This document shows positions 50-10,601 of a stretch of DNA of 26,957 nucleotides, one piece after another. The DNA is taken from the NCBI GenBank assembly GCA_044451405.1, contig JBIOKB010000012.1, positions 1 through 26,957 of the forward strand, given 5' to 3'. Each line of letters starts with the position of its first letter. Positions within the stretch are counted from its first letter, which is position 1. A program made the translations under genes and the position numbers. Origin of the DNA: Candidatus Babeliales bacterium. Its GTDB lineage: Bacteria > Babelota > Babeliae > Babelales > Vermiphilaceae. The notes below the pieces were generated by a model. That model was not told the DNA's origin, did not search any database, and saw nothing but the letters and a program-made list of their open reading frames with translations.

Positions 50-2632
50 TTAACACGTACGCTGTTGCTTGACCTGTAGTGGATTTTCTTCGTTTTCTAA
101 AAGTTTTTTGATCGCATCCGTCTTCGCCTCATCGAATATCTCCGATGTTTTAATTGGGCTACGCCGGACTTCGTCAGCTTTTATATTGTTTGCTATAAGT
201 GTTTTTGTTCCCGTTCGTCCTGAGCTTGACAAAATAGTGCGCTCATGCGCACCAGGATGCGGACGAGAGTCCTTCTTATTACCCTCCACTAAATACAATG
301 GATTTGCAGTCAATATATCTGATTTAAGTTCATCTTTTTGCAAGAACTCTTCAACCATAGTATGTGCATCATTATTGGTGCCAAAGAAGAAGCGGGTAAT
401 AGGGTCACGTAAGCTATCAAACAGTAGCCCTTCATCAGCATATTGGCGTGCTGTAGCGATATAATCTTTTGTATACGTACTTGCACCACCGCGCAGACGA
501 GGCTCAATAATGGTTGGTGAAATAAATACGGTAAGGTTAGTTTTTACAATTTCATCACGTCTACTTTTGAAGAGCCAGCCAATTAACGGAATTCTGCTGA
601 GCACAGGAGTATCCTGCATCTGAGCGGTCGTTGTAGTTACAATAAGACCACCAAGCGCCAAAATAGAGCCATTTTTAATATTAGCATTGGTATCAACAAC
701 ACGGGTAACGCGAAGATTTTGTGATGCGGTAGTTGCATTAGGGCCAGCAACCCACTCAGTTGCTTCAACATTAAGTTGTAAATTGAGCGTCTCAGAACTA
801 CTAATGCGTGGCGTTAGTTTTACGGTTAAATTTGCTGATTGTGGGGTAAATTTAACGCTCGTTGCAGCAGTACCACTGGTAGCTTCATCTGCTAAAAGAC
901 GTGTTTGCCCAATGGAAATAAATGCCTGCTGATTGTTTGTTGCAATAACGTGTGGATGAGACAAAATCTTGGTATGACCAAAGGTTTGTAAAAGCTGCGC
1001 TATGCTCCACGTTTCCCCCGTTGATGGCACATTAAATGAGATAAGAGTTGAGCCTGCAGGAGCTAAGTCTGCATAGCTTACATTACCTGATCCTGAAGGA
1101 TTTGGGATACTTATACTCAGCAAATCAGAAGCTACAGTTGAATCAATAGCGACCGGTGGAGTGGCTGCATCTAAAATAATCTGCGGTGTAACCTGTGCTG
1201 ATTGTGCACTACTTCTGGCAGTTCCTTGCTGACCGGCTTGAGCGTTTGTAATGGGTAATCCAATTGCATTACGTAACGTGTTACCCAACTGTTTTACATC
1301 ATCTATGGTTAAATCGGCTACCAACACTTCAAGAATTACGGTACGCTGCGGCTTATCAAGCTCTTCAATCAGTTGCTTAATGATTTTCCAATCATCATTT
1401 TTTGCAGCAACTACTAATTTGTTACCGCCATAATATGCTTGGGAAGCATCTACCGGCGTATCGGCTTTAATAAGGACACCTTCAAAATATCGTTCAGGGC
1501 CAACTTGAGTTTGAGTCCCGGTTGATTGTCCTGTGCCGCCAGGGAGCGTTGCTTGCACAATATTTTTGATCACCGGCTCAAGTTGTTGCGCATTTAAATA
1601 TTGCAACTCGTAGACGTGTAAAATTGATTGTCCTGAATCAAGTTCCACATCCAGATATTTGTAAATAAAATCTTTTACCTGATTTACTGCTTGTTCGCGG
1701 CCGACAATAACTAATGAATTAGTACGACGATCAGCAATTAATTTAACATTGCGTGAAAAGTATGTTGCTTCATTAAGACGATGAATATCAGTGCGATATT
1801 TATTCGCCTTATCTTTTTCTGGGGCCAAGATACTTTCACTGAATAACTTTGCAATAATATCAGCAGACGTGTAGCGCAATTTAACGACATCAAAGGTTTC
1901 ACGGTACGTTGTCTGATCAAGTGAAGTAAGCACATGCATCACTGAGCGTACGTTATTTGCCTTATCGCTTACCAACAATCCATTAGTTTTAGGATCAACT
2001 TTATAGAGCGCAGTATCGGGTAATAATTCTCTGAGTATGGTCATTAAAATGCCATCAGCGGCATCACTTACTTTTATATTGGCAAAATAATAGAGATACC
2101 GAATGCGTTCATCGCTATCAGGAAGTTCTTCCGGTTTTATACCAATAAAAATAGGAACCGCTTCGCGTGAAATCGCTTTGCTATTTTTTATGATGGTATA
2201 CGTAGGTTCTTGATCAACTAAGCTATAATCGGCAAGATCAAGAATGGATAGTAAAATATCCCATGCTTCATCAAGATCTAATAACTCATTAATGGTTAAG
2301 GTTACTGTTTCAGTAATAGCATTAGCACCCATGGGCAAAATAATATTATAGTCTTTTTCTGAAGCTACATAGTTGATGATATCAACGAGTTGTTCATTAT
2401 TAAATTTAAATTTAATCTTTTTTTCTGCGCGCACAGATCTACTATTTTTGCCTTTGCTCTTTTTCTTACCTGTTGTTTGATTGGTAGAGGAAGAGTCGAA
2501 TTTCTGTGCCAAAAGGGGATGAGAAGCAAGATCATGGTCGCTAGATGCTTGAGTATCTTGTTTGCACACTAAAGGGATGGTTATGCCTATGCTTACAAGG
2601 ATGAGTGCGTGTATATATGTTCTTAACTTCAT
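50..2632 (-). CDS. gspD: Type II secretion system secretin (GspD-like), distal paralog
   Basis: 860-aa ORF with an N-terminal signal peptide, N0 domain (IKFKFNNEQLVDIINYVA), repeated KH-like N domains (VVKLRYTSA, ADRRTNSLVIVG, VYELQYLNA) and a secretin core (VILEVLVAD, ILSHPHVIATNNQQAFISIG, LTVKLTPRI, TPVLSRIPLIGWLFKS, NLTVFISPTII). Confidence 0.93.
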   Translation of the reverse strand: MKLRTYIHALILVSIGITIPLVCKQDTQASSDHDLASHPLLAQKFDSSSTNQTTGKKKSKGKNSRSVRAEKKIKFKFNNEQLVDIINYVASEKDYNIILPMGANAITETVTLTINELLDLDEAWDILLSILDLADYSLVDQEPTYTIIKNSKAISREAVPIFIGIKPEELPDSDERIRYLYYFANIKVSDAADGILMTILRELLPDTALYKVDPKTNGLLVSDKANNVRSVMHVLTSLDQTTYRETFDVVKLRYTSADIIAKLFSESILAPEKDKANKYRTDIHRLNEATYFSRNVKLIADRRTNSLVIVGREQAVNQVKDFIYKYLDVELDSGQSILHVYELQYLNAQQLEPVIKNIVQATLPGGTGQSTGTQTQVGPERYFEGVLIKADTPVDASQAYYGGNKLVVAAKNDDWKIIKQLIEELDKPQRTVILEVLVADLTIDDVKQLGNTLRNAIGLPITNAQAGQQGTARSSAQSAQVTPQIILDAATPPVAIDSTVASDLLSISIPNPSGSGNVSYADLAPAGSTLISFNVPSTGETWSIAQLLQTFGHTKILSHPHVIATNNQQAFISIGQTRLLADEATSGTAATSVKFTPQSANLTVKLTPRISSSETLNLQLNVEATEWVAGPNATTASQNLRVTRVVDTNANIKNGSILALGGLIVTTTTAQMQDTPVLSRIPLIGWLFKSRRDEIVKTNLTVFISPTIIEPRLRGGASTYTKDYIATARQYADEGLLFDSLRDPITRFFFGTNNDAHTMVEEFLQKDELKSDILTANPLYLVEGNKKDSRPHPGAHERTILSSSGRTGTKTLIANNIKADEVRRSPIKTSEIFDEAKTDAIKKLLENEENPLQVKQQRTC
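116..170. repeat. Palindromic repeat family B, copy within the secretin coding sequence
   Basis: ATCCGTCTTCGCC...GGCTACGCCGGACT arms match the arms of intergenic 13820-13870 (ATCCAGCCTTCGCT...AGTTACGGCGGACT; right arm 11/14 identical). Imperfect inverted repeat around an internal CATCG/CGATG hairpin. Confidence 0.6.
210..267. repeat. Palindromic repeat family A (REP/RPE-like), copy within the secretin coding sequence
   Basis: Gapless inverted match to 10544-10601: 30/30 identical over 210-239 and 49/58 overall by manual alignment. Nested hairpin. Confidence 0.9.
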
Positions 2633-2643
2633 AAGTATCCCTG

Positions 2644-3204
2644 TTATTCTTTAGGACTTGTTTTAGGTTCCAAAGACGCAATAGTTATAGTGACTTCAAG
2701 CACTACAGGCATTTTTTTTAATGCTACTATATCTAATTCTTTTGTATAAATTCTTTTATTTTGATCGAGCGTATTAAGCAGTTCACACAGATCTTTCATG
2801 GTCATATCGGTTAATTTTGACCGTAAAATGCTTTCACTATATTTATCTTCTTTGTCGCTTTGTGATGTTTCTTCCAATGTTCGCTTATCGCTTAAGTGTA
2901 AGTTATTTAACACATCATTAAAAAAACCACCGATTTTAAAATTTTCGTCTTCTTTAATAATAGCATCAACTTCGGCTCGTTGCCGTTTAACGCGTTCAGC
3001 ACGTGTTAAAATAGCACGCGTTCGCTCACGTTCTTCATTGATGGTGTTAATGGTGCCAATAAGGGTATTTACCCGACTGTGGTAGAAATATAAAAGCAAA
3101 GAGAGCATAAGAATAAGGGCTCCCAGAGCAATTCCGCTGTATTTATAGAACGTCTGCTCATCAAGACTTGCAATAAAATCGCGCAGCTGATCAAATACTT
3201 TCAT
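2644..3204 (-). CDS. T2SS inner-membrane GspM/PilO-like protein
   Basis: 186 aa with one N-terminal TM helix (GIALGALILMLSLLLYFY), a coiled coil and a ferredoxin-like C-terminal pattern (LCELLNTLDQ...VLEVTITIASL); lies directly after the GspL-like gene. Confidence 0.7.
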   Translation of the reverse strand: MKVFDQLRDFIASLDEQTFYKYSGIALGALILMLSLLLYFYHSRVNTLIGTINTINEERERTRAILTRAERVKRQRAEVDAIIKEDENFKIGGFFNDVLNNLHLSDKRTLEETSQSDKEDKYSESILRSKLTDMTMKDLCELLNTLDQNKRIYTKELDIVALKKMPVVLEVTITIASLEPKTSPKE

Positions 3205-3211
3205 AGTATCC

Positions 3212-4825
3212 TTATACCGGTTTTGCTAATTTTATTTTCATCGTAAAGTCTGGATTTTGTTGCCCTTCAACATGTGCAAAGAGTTTTGATTGACGCAACT
3301 CTTTTTCAAGCAATGCAAGTGCTGCGTGATCCTTTACGTGAGCGGTTAATGTAATAGCAGGTTCAGTAATGGTTAATTTATCAATGGTAAATCCAAGATC
3401 TCTTTTATCAATTTTACTCGTAAGCTCTAGTAAATAGGTCAAAAATGATGGACGCATAGGATTAGCAAATGAGAACCATAACTCTTCTTCTCTTTTAACT
3501 TGTAATGTCGATTGTTCAACGGCATCTTCTAGATTACCAACATCAGATAATGCTTTAGGAAACTGATGTTTGAGCGCCTCAACTGCTTCTTGCTGATATT
3601 CGTCAACAGCGGTATTAAGCGTATGTAATTGTAAAAAGCTAAATACACCAAAACTGATAAGCATCATGAGGCTGAGAATTGCTGCGCAGATTAATTGTTT
3701 ATTTAATAAAGAAGCATCAGATGCTTTAGTTACTATCTTTGGTTGCAAATTAAAATTTTGAATAACAGGCGAAGGCAATGCACTGCTCAAGCTTAAAATG
3801 CTTCTAAATGGAATGTTGTTCTTTCCAACGATTGATATAGTGGCTGTATGGAGCAGCTCGTTAATACGCATTAATTCACATGGCGTCTGTGCCTGCGTGG
3901 TAACAAACGCAGGTAATCCTTTTATATCAGCGCCACCACCTAACAGCACGATGCGTGTTAATGGTGCTTGATCAAGCGCGGTAAAGCTGTTTAAGGTAAA
4001 AGCAATTTCTTGCCAAAAACTGGTAAGGGCGTTGTTCATAGTTTTAGTATAGGCAGGGTTATCATACCGTTCTAAGCCATAGCGCATGATTGATTCTAAT
4101 GCTTCAGATGCTGAAACGTCTAACTCATCACTTATTGATTTTGCAATGGTTGCAACTCCTTTTGGTAATGAGCGTATCAGGCGAAGTTGTCCATTATGTA
4201 TGTAACCAATGGTAGTGGTGTATGAACCAATATCAATGAGCGCTACACCGCCTTCAAGTTTTGAGTATGAAGGTATCTGGAGATACGTGCCATAGAGCAC
4301 AAAAAGATCAACGATTATTTGTTGTACCGTAAGACCTGCTTCTTGAAAGAGTTGCAAATGCTCATCAACATGAACTTTTTGTGTAGCGGCTACTAATACC
4401 TTTGATGTTTTTTCTGTTTTATTTTCTTGGGTAATGATACAATCGATAACTGCATCAGCAAGTGCAAAAGGGAGCAATGGTTCAACTTCAAAATCAGCAA
4501 CCATTGCAACTTTATCTCGTCCAATAAATGGTATGGTGAGTTCTTTAAAAATAACCAGCGAGCTACTCAAGCTTGTGTGAATGGCATCATACCGATCAAG
4601 TTGTTGTGCAATAGTTACAAGCGCTGCTGCTACTCGTTCATTGTACATGCTCACGCTGCCATTCTCTAAGGCTACTTCTATGCATTTTTCAATAGTAACC
4701 TGACGGCCTTTAAGGTAAATCTGCGTTGCATGTATATGTGTTTTGCCAATATCAAAGCCAACAATACGTTTAGGAAATAGATAGTAGGTACCTACATGTT
4801 CAGGAAGAAAGATGTTGCGAATCAT
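3212..4825 (-). CDS. GspL-like protein: PilM-type actin-fold cytoplasmic domain fused to a TM helix and a PilN-like periplasmic domain
   Basis: Actin-fold motifs IVGFDIG, ALIDIGSYTT and IVLLGGGA; TM helix near aa 378-400; C-terminal PilN-like segment (ITLTAHV...LEKELRQSKLF). ATGA overlap with the upstream secretin. Confidence 0.82.
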   Translation of the reverse strand: MIRNIFLPEHVGTYYLFPKRIVGFDIGKTHIHATQIYLKGRQVTIEKCIEVALENGSVSMYNERVAAALVTIAQQLDRYDAIHTSLSSSLVIFKELTIPFIGRDKVAMVADFEVEPLLPFALADAVIDCIITQENKTEKTSKVLVAATQKVHVDEHLQLFQEAGLTVQQIIVDLFVLYGTYLQIPSYSKLEGGVALIDIGSYTTTIGYIHNGQLRLIRSLPKGVATIAKSISDELDVSASEALESIMRYGLERYDNPAYTKTMNNALTSFWQEIAFTLNSFTALDQAPLTRIVLLGGGADIKGLPAFVTTQAQTPCELMRINELLHTATISIVGKNNIPFRSILSLSSALPSPVIQNFNLQPKIVTKASDASLLNKQLICAAILSLMMLISFGVFSFLQLHTLNTAVDEYQQEAVEALKHQFPKALSDVGNLEDAVEQSTLQVKREEELWFSFANPMRPSFLTYLLELTSKIDKRDLGFTIDKLTITEPAITLTAHVKDHAALALLEKELRQSKLFAHVEGQQNPDFTMKIKLAKPV

Positions 4826-7566
4826 GCGTGTACTCCTTGGTTGGTATCAGGAGAGTTCAATAAAGACGATGATCGTGTGCGTGTAGGGACGGTGGTCTGC
4901 TTGGTGTTTTGGGCAACAGTAGTTGCTTTGGTTGTTGCGGATCCTGGAGAAATAACTCGTTGAGCGGGCTCAGCTTTAGGAGTATTCTGCCCGATCACAA
5001 TCTCATTACCCGCAGCCTTGCGCATCTCTGATGGTTTGTTAACACCCTTATTTTTCTTCTTCTTATGTTTTTTATTGCGATTAAAGAGATAATTATCAAT
5101 CATTTTTTCGGTACTATCTTCTCCAGCAGCAAAGAATAACTTATGAATAGGATCACTCGAGGTATATGGTTGTTCTATGTTTGTTAAATCACCATGATAA
5201 TCTTTAATACGCTCTTGCGTGAATCCATTGTAATCTTTTGGTTCATGAGGGCGCACAATGCGCGTCGATATTAATATGAGCAAATTAGTTTTTGATTCTT
5301 GTTTGCTCTTATTTTTAAAGAGCCAGCCAACAATAGGAAGATTTCCTAGCAGCGGTACTTGGGATATAGTGTTAGTTATTTGCGTACGAATTAAGCCGCC
5401 TAACGCTAATACTTCTTTATCAGCAACAATAGATGTTGTCTTAATTTCTTGCGTATTTTTAGTTGCATCTTGGAAGTTTGTTTGATCAGTAAATGTGTTA
5501 ATTTGTACATCAAGATCGAGTACAATCATGCCATCAGAGTTAATTTGTGGGGTAACAGATACCGTTAAATTTGCATCATCGTTAGCAAAAGATTCTTGGG
5601 TTGTTGCACCAACAACGTTTGCAGCTACAACTCGGCGCCGTTGACCAACAGATACCGTTGCCTTCTTTTTGTTAGTAGCAACTAAGAATGGATTAGAAAC
5701 AACTTGAGCGTTGCTGATAGTTTCAAGTATGTTGAAAATACCCCAGACACCAAAAAAGTCAGTACCTAATGATACAACAGTGTTTCCTGGAAGTGATGTG
5801 CCAAATGAACCGTTTACTAAATTAATTAAGTTGCCAAGCAGGCGCTCAACACCAGTTCCAGCGCTATTCGTTACAATACCAGCAGCACTACCGCTAATCA
5901 ATGAGCCAGATGTTTGAAATTGTACACTTTTGAGAGGGTTGCCATTAGTTGCTGGGTTGCTCGCTGATTGTTTACTACGCAATTGAGCACCTAATATTTT
6001 ACTACGTTCAAGATCAAGGGAAATAATAAGCACTTCAACGGCAACTTGTGGTTGAGAAGAATCAAGTGCATCTAAAATTTCTTTAGCGCGTAAATAATCT
6101 TCTTCTTCACCTTTAATGATAATACGATTGGTTGAGGGTTCAGGGGTAAAGGTAATTGTTTTTAAATATTTATCATTATCGCGCACACCACCAACTTGGC
6201 CAGCAGGGGTGTTTTTACCAAACTGGGTAACTTCTGTCATAATGTTAGATACCGTCACCGCATCAGCATATTTGAGCGTGTATACACGCAACGGTGAATG
6301 CATTTTACCGATATCAACATCTACATAGTTAACGATAAAATCTTCTATTTTTTTAATAGCATCAGGAGTTCCGAGTAAAATGAGAGAGTTAGAGCGTGGT
6401 TCAGCGATCATGCGGGTGTTTTCAGGGAAATATAACGTAGTTGGTTGTTTACGTGCCGGGAATAACCTACCTGCTGCACTTTGATCATCTGTTTGGATAA
6501 TGCCATCATAAAGATTTTTAACTTCCTGTGCATCAGCGCGGCGCAATTTGAGCACCGACATTGCTTGAGGAAGTGTTGTACGATCAAGTTCAGTAACAAT
6601 CTTCATTAAGCTTTTTATGTTGTATGCTTTATCGGTAAGTAGAAATGCATTGAGCTCATTAAGAACTAAAAATGCTGATGCGGTGCTGCGCAGCGATTCT
6701 ACAATATCTTTCATAGTGGTTATTGAAGCATTTTCTACAAAATACACATAACGCACCAATTGATCCGTATCAGGAAGGGCATCTGGCTTGGTACCAATGA
6801 ATGCAGGGATAGGTGATTTGCGCGCAAGCTCTGTTTGCACAACTTTAAAAATAGTAGGATCTGCATCAGGAACCAACGTAAGGCCAGCCATATCTAAAAA
6901 TGATACAAATAAGCTCCAGGCAGTTTTTTTGGTCAGTGGCTTAAATGTTTTAAACGAAATTTTGTTACCACTGACCCCTTTGCCTACTTTTGGCAATGGC
7001 GTGAGAATATCGTTGGTAATAAAGGTAACGTTATACACATCGGACATGTACGTTAACAGTGTATTTAAATCAGCATCTTCAAAATGAAATTCTATAGTTG
7101 CTTCTTGCTCGCCCTCGCTCATCACGGGCATGACACTTTTGCGAGCATCTTTTTGCACCTGTTGAGGTGTTTTAGGCGGCATGGCAGGTAGCTGTTGTAT
7201 TTCTTTTTCTAATTCAAGCGGAAGGCGGGATTGGCCTAGATTAACTTCATGAATGTCTTGGTCGCCCTGATCGGCAAGTAACACTGATTTTTTAGTTGAT
7301 ACAGGAACGTTTATTGTTGCGGGAACTTTAGTATCTGCTGCATTGCTTGCTACTGTACTTGCTGCACCTTGCTGAGTCTGATCAGGCGTTTGACTGTTAG
7401 TTAGAGTTGAATTTTTACTGCCCGCGTTGTGCTCTGTAGAAATAGCTGATACTGGCTCCAGTTCATCTCTGCTTGCCAACAACAACCCTTTAGCTTGTAT
7501 TATAGGTGCGCACAATATAGTAGTAAAAAGAAAAGCAAGCACACGGTTTATATACTTATTGTTCAT
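4822..7566 (-). CDS. gspD: Type II secretion system secretin GspD, proximal paralog
   Basis: 914 aa with signal peptide (…APIIQA), low-complexity linker, N0 (IEFHFEDADL), N domains (VLKLRRADA, AEPRSNSLILLG, VYTLKYADA) and secretin core (PQVAVEVLI, VTPQINSDG, VPLLGNLPIVGWLFK). ATGA overlap with gspC. Confidence 0.94.
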   Translation of the reverse strand: MNNKYINRVLAFLFTTILCAPIIQAKGLLLASRDELEPVSAISTEHNAGSKNSTLTNSQTPDQTQQGAASTVASNAADTKVPATINVPVSTKKSVLLADQGDQDIHEVNLGQSRLPLELEKEIQQLPAMPPKTPQQVQKDARKSVMPVMSEGEQEATIEFHFEDADLNTLLTYMSDVYNVTFITNDILTPLPKVGKGVSGNKISFKTFKPLTKKTAWSLFVSFLDMAGLTLVPDADPTIFKVVQTELARKSPIPAFIGTKPDALPDTDQLVRYVYFVENASITTMKDIVESLRSTASAFLVLNELNAFLLTDKAYNIKSLMKIVTELDRTTLPQAMSVLKLRRADAQEVKNLYDGIIQTDDQSAAGRLFPARKQPTTLYFPENTRMIAEPRSNSLILLGTPDAIKKIEDFIVNYVDVDIGKMHSPLRVYTLKYADAVTVSNIMTEVTQFGKNTPAGQVGGVRDNDKYLKTITFTPEPSTNRIIIKGEEEDYLRAKEILDALDSSQPQVAVEVLIISLDLERSKILGAQLRSKQSASNPATNGNPLKSVQFQTSGSLISGSAAGIVTNSAGTGVERLLGNLINLVNGSFGTSLPGNTVVSLGTDFFGVWGIFNILETISNAQVVSNPFLVATNKKKATVSVGQRRRVVAANVVGATTQESFANDDANLTVSVTPQINSDGMIVLDLDVQINTFTDQTNFQDATKNTQEIKTTSIVADKEVLALGGLIRTQITNTISQVPLLGNLPIVGWLFKNKSKQESKTNLLILISTRIVRPHEPKDYNGFTQERIKDYHGDLTNIEQPYTSSDPIHKLFFAAGEDSTEKMIDNYLFNRNKKHKKKKNKGVNKPSEMRKAAGNEIVIGQNTPKAEPAQRVISPGSATTKATTVAQNTKQTTVPTRTRSSSLLNSPDTNQGVHA

Positions 7567-8696
7567 GGTTGTACTCCCTCAGATACATTATGAGGTTGAT
7601 GAGGAGTAGGCGCTTTCCCTTTTTCCATCATTATTTTTCTTTCGCGTGAACGAATGTCGTGTAATGTTGGTGCAAATTTATGACGTTCTTGCATAGCTTT
7701 TATCTGATCTTGGGTAGCTTGACCAGCAGTTGCTCCGCGCATCTGAACCACTTCTTTTTCAGCTGATTCAGTATCATCGGATTGTCCTATGACGTACTGT
7801 ACTGTATAAGGTCTATTATTACGGATTAAGTCTACAACAATAGTGTCTTTTGTCTTCATGCTAGTTATCTGTTTGTAAATTGCCATACGATGTGCGGTAT
7901 CAACAACCGGTACACTATTAATGGCACGAATAATATCGCCTGATTGTAAGCCAAGCTCCTGCGCAAATGATGGATCTTGTATGGTTCCTATTTTGCAGCC
8001 AACACTGGTACCATTTTGATATACGGTAGTTAAATCAAGAAGATCAATAAATTGTCCGAGATTATTAATGCGGAACATAAACTCTTTGGTGTTGATAAGG
8101 TATTGATTGTCGCTCATTTTTTGAGTAATGCCTTTAAAGCCGGTGATCTGTGCATAGGTTGGATCAAGTTGGGCATCTTTAGGACGTAGATACAAGACCT
8201 CCTGTTGCCCGTTTGGACGCAAGAATAGAACTTTATTACTAAAAATTTTAATCAGTTGTGCATCTTCAACAATATCACCAACTTTGTAAGAACCTTCTTT
8301 GTTGGTACGAGTATCGCTAATAATTGCCCGATTTTTAGTATCATCATTGCCAATAATAATGATCCCTTTGAGTGTGATTTTTAATGGTTCTAAAAATTGT
8401 GGCCGTGGTTCAGGTGGCACATGGGTTGGTATAGGAGGTGGTGGCGGAGGTGCAGGTGTAATATAATTAGGCTCTGTTGGTATTTCCTGCTGCGAATGAT
8501 AGGTGCCAAAAAGATCATTTTCATAAATTTTACGGATATTTACTTCTGAAACTTTTTTTGGCAATGGTTTTACATAACCACGTGCTTCAATCTGTTCTGA
8601 CGCAGGAACATCTACACGCATGATAAGCATGAAACATACAATGATAATGAATAGAAAAAGAAGTGCGCTATTCACAATCCACAGGGGATGTCTCAT
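7563..8696 (-). CDS. gspC: Type II secretion protein GspC with PDZ domain
   Basis: N-terminal TM helix, Pro-rich linker, HR domain (LKITLKGII...RAIISD...YKVGD), PDZ motif (AQELGLQSGDIIRAINSV); directly upstream of gspD. Confidence 0.85.
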   Translation of the reverse strand: MRHPLWIVNSALLFLFIIIVCFMLIMRVDVPASEQIEARGYVKPLPKKVSEVNIRKIYENDLFGTYHSQQEIPTEPNYITPAPPPPPPIPTHVPPEPRPQFLEPLKITLKGIIIIGNDDTKNRAIISDTRTNKEGSYKVGDIVEDAQLIKIFSNKVLFLRPNGQQEVLYLRPKDAQLDPTYAQITGFKGITQKMSDNQYLINTKEFMFRINNLGQFIDLLDLTTVYQNGTSVGCKIGTIQDPSFAQELGLQSGDIIRAINSVPVVDTAHRMAIYKQITSMKTKDTIVVDLIRNNRPYTVQYVIGQSDDTESAEKEVVQMRGATAGQATQDQIKAMQERHKFAPTLHDIRSRERKIMMEKGKAPTPHQPHNVSEGVQP

Positions 8697-9821: not shown

Positions 9822-10010
9822 CGTTGTTACCTTTCTTTGCTTCATTACTGTTTATGTGTGGGTGTGCTGTACCCATATATAGTGTGCTTGGCGCACCGTG
9901 TAGTACAATCACCATAGAAATTCATAAAAAGATGTCTATTATTGTATCAATCTTACTACAATCTTACAAATACGTAGTTTGTTTATTATTGGTGTGAACA
10001 GGAGTTTTAT

Positions 10011-10543: not shown

Positions 10544-10601
10544 CCCATTCATATCCTGGTGTGCCTGGGCACACTATTTTGTCAAGCTCAGGACGAACGG
10601 G
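10544..10601. repeat. Palindromic repeat family A, intergenic copy between convergent dcd and mlaF
   Basis: Minus strand CCCGTTCGTCCTGAGCTTGACAAAATAGTGTGCCCAGGCACACCAGGATATGAATGGG: outer stem plus inner GTGTGC/GCACAC hairpin. Inverted copy of 210-267. Confidence 0.9.

Follow-up and report, generated by a model that had tools for sequence, protein, structure and literature searches.

Three described systems of palindromic repeats stand closest to the locus analyzed here. Rickettsia palindromic elements, said to have been described by Ogata and co-workers in 2000 and 2002, reportedly insert in frame into protein genes and measure about 100–150 bases. The second system comprises the REP and REPIN repeats with their RAYT partners (Bertels and Rainey 2011, PMC3116915). 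In the third, according to Chenal et al. 2025 (PMC11893778), small single-domain GIY-YIG proteins named Ssn (cd10448) are flanked by oriented NTS/SRM hairpin repeats and cut these hairpins as single-stranded DNA; the authors liken the NTS-ssnA-NTS arrangement to insertion sequences and REP/RAYT, and place NTS inside genes in 2% of cases. Here we analyze positions 1–26,957 of contig JBIOKB010000012.1 from a Candidatus Babeliales bacterium (hereafter the window, of 26,957 nucleotides; the phylum is termed Dependentiae throughout), where a 58-base palindromic element at 210–267 lies inside a gene for a GspD-type secretin. The element is a composite, with an inner hairpin, B, within the loop of an outer hairpin, A. 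We read it, with a probability of roughly 0.8, as a gene-less copy of a small, mobile-looking repeat that sits in a disordered linker of the secretin and is translated through, adding 20 residues, with A belonging to a cross-phylum repeat linked to GIY-YIG genes and B being specific to the lineage.

The likeness to the Rickettsia elements is one of behavior: in both cases palindromes of a small symbiont genome are translated as extra peptide in loops or linkers of intact, conserved proteins, and here such in-frame, read-through palindromes, absent from orthologues, were found in the secretin, in MutL and in a permease. The phylum differs, the element is 35–58 bases long as against the reported 100–150 or so, and a candidate nuclease partner is present here. 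Peptide gain by essential proteins through selfish palindromes, long deemed a Rickettsia curiosity, would also operate in Dependentiae. With the REP/REPIN and RAYT system A shares short extragenic palindromes that often form inverted pairs and are tied to a single-copy enzyme gene that they flank; the differences are that no RAYT or Y1 gene was found in the host genome, that the partner is a GIY-YIG nuclease, and that many A copies are intragenic.

By its architecture A appears to be working like an SRM; we do not assign it to that family. Set beside the Ssn description, the two share a single-domain GIY-YIG gene bracketed by inverted hairpins (the A cassettes of other genomes), many gene-less copies per genome (24 A copies in the host, up to 86 arm matches elsewhere in the phylum), an oriented, conserved 5′ part of the hairpin, and a wide, patchy spread across phyla that is enriched in symbionts; the species list given there overlaps the taxa that hold A. 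The differences are that the conserved GTC lies inside the stem in A and upstream of the stem in the oligonucleotides of Chenal et al., that 7/24 A copies are intragenic as against 2% for NTS, that the nuclease gene was not found in the host genome, and that a second hairpin is nested inside A. Among the literature searched, the phrase "Ssn-related motif" occurs only in that paper. Both in-frame palindromes of the Rickettsia kind and nuclease-associated hairpins of the Ssn kind are therefore already known in kind; new are a class of hairpins that the published SRM pattern does not capture, a high intragenic share in a genome without a detected cassette nuclease, and the nested, lineage-specific B.

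The Composite Element and Its Reading Frame

The reverse complement of 210–267 aligns without gaps to a second composite at 10544–10601, with 49/58 identical bases, nine differences and complete identity (30/30) over 210–239, exactly as an earlier sequence-only reading of this DNA had reported. Four of the differences fall in the inner hairpin (GTGCGC-TCAT-GCGCAC versus GTGTGC-CCAG-GCACAC). Two of them make up a paired change of C-G to T-A in the stem and two lie in the loop, and the compensatory stem pair claimed by that reading is thus borne out. The other five, all transitions, are confined to one outer arm. By our own reading of the + strand, three of them turn a Watson–Crick pair into G-T, one falls within a bulge and one produces a C-A mismatch, so the claim that most outer-arm differences exchange Watson–Crick for G-U pairs also stands. 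Folded as + strand RNA, both window copies adopt the nested structure (z = −2.6 and −3.1).

Within the open reading frame (ORF) at 50–2632(−) the element corresponds to codons 789–808, contains no stop and translates as SRPHPGAHERTILSSSGRTG. It lies beyond the DPIxxxFF motif, and the paralogous secretin (4822–7566), which has DPIxxxFF and a low-complexity tail of its own, lacks the segment; on both points the sequence-only reading was correct. A common L-x-x-LL-x-x-x-NPL motif stands at the end of the orthologues, both those of 19 relatives and those in the protein database; in this secretin it follows the element by 30–40 residues. Across 32 aligned sequences P851 never varies and N850 is conserved in at least 90%. 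We take the reading frame through the element to be genuine because this C-terminal helix and N-P motif, located downstream of it, are conserved in the 32 orthologues.

Between the last core motif (DPITRFFF...DEL, around residue 770) and the C-terminal helix, orthologue linkers vary in length and are unrelated in sequence. An AlphaFold model built on the 32-sequence alignment (mean predicted local distance difference test score, pLDDT, of 63) shows no secondary structure over residues 777–831, block pLDDT values of 30–39 over 781–830 and a helix at 832–846, and so puts the element peptide in what is predicted to be a disordered linker. In the closest orthologues, P0003 (86% identity) and P0004 (78%), the linker is some 30 residues shorter and the peptide is missing. 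Because these linkers cannot be aligned, they establish that the peptide is absent and not that it forms the clean indel envisaged by the sequence-only reading; a clean insertion was demonstrated for the permease described below.

Copies of the Outer Hairpin

The host assembly spans 1.02 Mb in 89 contigs, with 40% G+C and an estimated completeness of 95.7%; the database names of homologues likewise point to Candidatus Dependentiae. Further genomic copies of the element, whose existence the sequence-only reading had made its test, are present: an 18-base A arm gave 19 matches at up to two mismatches, against none for a reversed control and thus well beyond chance, and 24 matches at up to three. 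These 24 copies comprise 19 simple A hairpins, four composites (both window copies, C29:10605 and C54:3590-3662, with B at the same loop position) and a fifth, diverged composite (C8:2295). When the simple copies were made into an nhmmer profile, 23 of the 24 were found again and nothing convincing was added. A is about 35 bases long with a conserved 5′ arm and, in the 19 simple copies, an 11-base loop; its stem covaries among copies (TCCT/AGGA, CCCT/AGGG, TGGT/ACCA). The alignment of the five composite or divergent copies is small and gapped, and base pairs were counted by eye there and on the 47 B loci described below.

Seven of the 24 copies lie within six credible ORFs, compared with a coding fraction of 0.90; this count, like all intergenic, intragenic and orientation counts given here, rests on a crude longest-ORF map of 980 ORFs. 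Their products are the secretin, MutL, an amino-acid permease, a glycosyltransferase of family 2 and two proteins that match no Pfam family, with two copies in the ORF of one of these; three further copies in ORFs of 91–95 residues were judged doubtful. In MutL, A occupies an interdomain linker and is missing from an orthologue of 75% identity, and in the permease it forms a clean insertion of nine residues between conserved helices that is missing from all nine orthologues. The frame used differs from gene to gene and both orientations occur. A is open in five of its six frames and the composite in three or four of six.

The picture is one of insertions probably filtered by selection, as reported for Rickettsia palindromic elements; intragenic copies would survive only where the frame is kept, no stop arises and the loop or linker is tolerant. 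These comparisons support the proposal of the sequence-only reading that a dispersed REP/MITE-like repeat would be adding peptide sequence to proteins in this lineage, the closest secretin, MutL and permease orthologues all lacking the segments. The peptide added to the secretin would most likely be a neutral passenger and not a functional module.

The arm had also been suspected to be widespread, and it is. Across Dependentiae it occurs in 67 of 201 genomes, patchily and with up to 86 matches each, while reversed controls gave almost none. An exact 23-base A core was found in at least 123 stretches from many phyla, the taxa among the matches listed including Sphingomonadales, Chloroflexota, Methylococcaceae, Nitrosomonas, Brocadia, Cloacimonadota and others. 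In Rfam, the window matched no family at gathering thresholds, and eight cross-phylum A loci had no relevant match at E values up to 1. Literature searches, whose coverage lay outside subscription journals, found no paper on the A motif or the B hairpin and nothing relevant for "Dependentiae" combined with "palindromic"; short stretches of the encoded peptide and 14-base stretches of the repeat DNA matched unrelated papers only, by chance.

Association with Small GIY-YIG Nuclease Genes

The sequence-only reading had suggested that a nuclease or transposase gene might be flanked by the repeat. This holds in other genomes, where A brackets small GIY-YIG genes, and not in the host, where neither the cognate gene nor a RAYT was found. 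The small GIY-YIG genes of five A-rich Dependentiae genomes split into two types. One type, of about 92 residues, has eight intact genes, and A lies within 85 bases of five of these and of one decayed gene; it stands on both sides, inverted, in three of the five A-linked intact genes and in the decayed one, 38–49 bases upstream and 0–85 bases downstream. The resulting cassette spans about 380 bases, with A as inverted terminal hairpins around one single-domain gene; across the genomes other than the host, cassette nucleases have 91–98 residues and their Pfam GIY-YIG match covers nearly the whole domain. For the second type, in these five genomes, A was found within 1.5 kb of none of five genes.

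The same arrangement recurs outside the phylum. The exact 23-base core led to an Altererythrobacter locus in which a 94-residue GIY-YIG gene lies between two inverted cores, and its product is 55% identical to the Dependentiae cassette nuclease. In five non-Dependentiae genomes reached through A loci, the core lies within 85 bases of all six close homologues (48–56% identity; Dehalococcoidia, Altererythrobacter, Thiobacillus) and within 1.5 kb of none of nine distant homologues (30–44%). Inverted A on both sides was seen at loci L160, L163, L165 and L179 in Dependentiae and at L034/L181, L180 and L190 in other phyla, so that cassettes are known from Dependentiae, Dehalococcoidia, Alpha- and Betaproteobacteria. 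Within Dependentiae, the cassette gene is present in 10/12 A-rich versus 4/12 A-free genomes, which are related and not independent samples. A thus belongs to a cross-phylum family that brackets small GIY-YIG genes. No NCBIfam model matches the small GIY-YIG proteins, and among solved structures the cassette nuclease is most closely related to UPF0213 proteins (PDB 1zg2, 1ywl). The Ssn/SRM picture is widened by a hairpin class that lies beyond its search pattern and, along with a nuclease clade, shows base-for-base conservation across phyla. A tiny GIY-YIG nuclease cassette can be named as the likely driver of the A family, and the proposal is testable.

One Dehalococcoidia locus, L185 (G207:C2:613103-616369), has a cassette gene followed by at least nine tandem A cores with a 33-base period inside an open frame of 319 residues.

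On this architecture, a nuclease acting on the A hairpin in single-stranded DNA may have spread gene-less copies, and the host genome would now keep orphan A copies only. B would have inserted into the loop of an A copy, and the composite would then have multiplied to four copies. The host copies look like orphans, given that no cassette gene was found and that a similar state is seen in G014, a genome in a single contig with 37 arm matches and no cassette gene; orphan repeat populations would thus persist once the nuclease gene is gone. The cassette gene of the host could also lie in unassembled sequence, because several of the 89 contigs end at A copies.

A number of observations weigh against this account of the secretin element. 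At the DNA level the unalignable linker of the nearest orthologues leaves neither a target-site duplication nor an empty site demonstrable. The outer-arm G-T changes, which might pass for compensation, would also arise from transition-biased decay of one arm. The degenerate SRM pattern published in PMC11893778 has no match in the host genome (shuffled controls gave 0–4), in 123 cross-phylum loci or in 20 GIY-YIG loci. The link between A and the nuclease has exceptions, with three of the eight close Dependentiae genes having no A nearby, four A-free genomes carrying the cassette gene and two of the 12 A-rich genomes lacking it. A tblastn search of the host genome with the cassette protein returned nothing below E = 1, and no close homologue was found; the PF01541 matches there are UvrC (window 17433–18695) and three small genes of the second type, two of which have A within about 110 bases. 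Nothing in the host genome demonstrably moves A.

Several of these points would be accommodated if the repeats were moved by something other than the cassette GIY-YIG nuclease, such as a RAYT/IS200-type single-strand transposase, a second-type small GIY-YIG protein, or slippage or gene conversion between hairpins. The missing cognate gene, the proximity of A to two of the three second-type genes and the cassette genes of A-free genomes all speak for such a mover, and we know of no enzyme for B. We nevertheless consider it unlikely. The host genome has no match to the RAYT/Y1 transposase family PF01797, for which the control was positive in 6/14 genomes, and TnpB and IS110 transposases were likewise not found in it; A is not near any of the five second-type genes of the other Dependentiae genomes, and the contrast of 6/6 with 0/9 across phyla links A to a single nuclease clade.

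The second-type genes that adjoin A in the host (about 82 residues) are at C29:10345-10593 and C62:137-379.

The Inner Hairpin

B consists of an A-rich run, TA, GTGYGC, a loop of 3–8 bases, GCRCAC and CA, 20–24 bases in all, and occurs at 47 loci in the host genome. The variable stem pair is C-G at 25 loci, T-A at 19, T-G at two and C-A at one, so that the covariation anticipated from the two window copies holds at 44/47 loci; the four half-sites are about equally common across the genome. A strict B pattern matched 24 loci in the host and none in 30 relatives, and the A+B junction matched four times in the host and not once in 200 other Dependentiae genomes. In a metagenome scan the exact composite junction had no match, and the B pattern had 45 single matches, 41 of which were in unrelated high-GC or chance contexts. 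The other four came from an organism with 74–88% DNA identity to the host genome and allowed orthologous sites to be compared at three of these loci. At the first site, the metagenome organism has a 23-base B and the host a clean gap; at the second, the metagenome organism has B and the host a shorter, unalignable sequence; at the third, B is present in both with different loops. From its presence or absence at these three aligned sites, B is probably gained and lost as a unit.

Nesting is recurrent. At C54:3590-3662 (L150:184-270) a complete B lies in the loop of another B within the loop of an A copy. At C2:9781, C4:28631, C19:8153 and C33:5502, B occupies the center of another repeated palindrome, …cccggataagcaaagta-B-cagactgg…, and at C2:35072 and C24:5588 it lies inside yet another, …agcttaaaata-B-cac…cttcgtag. 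B loci are mainly intergenic and B alone is almost never within credible genes; the secretin B copy probably arrived as part of the composite. The sequence-only reading had regarded the form with an extra hairpin as a possibly undescribed variant: no paper on B was found, and B is, from its distribution and nesting, best described as a separate, lineage-specific repeat family nested in A and not a variant of it. The nested arrangement offers a small, tractable case of hairpin repeats colonizing the loops of one another.

We put forward only tentatively, as something rather less probable than not, that B is a new type of ultra-small mobile DNA (20–24 bases) of one Dependentiae lineage, which would insert after an A-run into single-stranded loops (those of A, of the 'cccggataagc' palindrome and of B itself), preserve its stem by paired C-G/T-A changes, and be carried within A into coding sequence, with no recognizable transposase in the genome.

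B might instead be the intrinsic terminator of this lineage, in which case the secretin copy would attenuate or end the transcript about 185 bases before the stop codon and the repeat would act at the RNA level and not as selfish DNA. On one strand B does form an eight-pair stem (with G-U) followed by TATTTT, a consensus terminator scan lists both window copies, one on the sense strand of the secretin and the other just past dcd, and the intergenic position of most loci fits as well. We regard a terminator as quite improbable, since B appears to be oriented at random with respect to neighboring genes (16 loci terminator-consistent, 15 not), is missing at two orthologous intergenic sites between related genomes and was not found in the 30 relatives; moreover, a stereotyped stem sequence is unexpected for terminators, and the conserved motif past the secretin copy argues for a full-length protein. 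A lineage-specific repeat carried into the gene within A remains the reading that we prefer.

Copies of B at C8:15797 and C3:16627 stand directly 5′ of AAGGAGAT and a start codon, so that the hairpin abuts the ribosome-binding site. A third, weaker B-like hairpin of the window, at 9882–9896 between a MoxR ATPase gene and dcd, has T-G at the variable pair and a 3-base loop.

In the related metagenome organism (L238), a single B lies between sequences matching host contigs C52:143-293 and C44:1427-1574, and both contigs lead up to an A copy with a similar arm of about 60 bases before it. This arrangement points to an assembly break and to a larger insertion at the site, putatively bounded by inverted repeats.

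Population Variation and Assembly

Soil reads from three DNA runs of one study each cover small shares of the region, and one of these runs may be the source sample; no RNA run is listed as covering it. A public soil contig of 251 bases (depth about 2) matches 197–355, including the whole element, with zero differences, and joins 133 to 197, thereby omitting the in-frame stretch 134–196 just downstream of the element. This hints that the length of the secretin linker varies within the population. The 63-base stretch was considered as a further repeat and rejected, as it is not repetitive. The soil contig argues weakly against an artefact, because its run may be the source sample. An error of assembly or binning, with a repeat-induced chimera near the start of the contig as the source of the secretin copy, is highly improbable: the element does lie 210 bases from the contig end and other contigs do break at A copies, but the soil contig agrees, secretin sequence stands on both flanks and the frame runs on into the conserved motif.

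Features of the Window

The secretin gene is the last of a cluster that also encodes a GspC/PDZ protein, a second secretin and PilM. Coordinates of the features discussed are collected in Table 1.

Table 1. Features of the secretin gene and of the two composite elements (window positions).
Feature	Position	Strand	Remarks
GspD-type secretin gene, 860 residues; Pfam N0, Secretin_N and Secretin domains	50..2632	−	
Conserved C-terminal helix (residues 832–846) and N850-P851 motif	77..139	−	Same frame, downstream of the element
In-frame linker stretch of 63 bases skipped by one metagenome contig (length polymorphism)	134..196		
Composite palindromic element (A with B in its loop)	210..267	+	Read in frame on the − strand as secretin residues 789–808
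Conserved 5′ arm and loop start of A, common to all 24 genomic copies	210..228	+	
Inner hairpin B unit, TA-GTGCGC-loop-GCGCAC-CA	235..254	+	On the − strand: hairpin, then T-run
Diverged 3′ arm of A	253..267	+	
Second composite A+B, intergenic	10544..10601	−	Between convergent stops of dCTP deaminase (10535) and ABC ATPase (10607) genes
B of the intergenic copy	10557..10576	+	Terminator-like on the + strand, 23 bases past the dcd stop

With the neighboring genes at 2644–8696, the cluster comprises the two paralogous secretins (860 and 914 residues), PilM, the GspC/PDZ protein and an ORF of 186 residues without a Pfam match.

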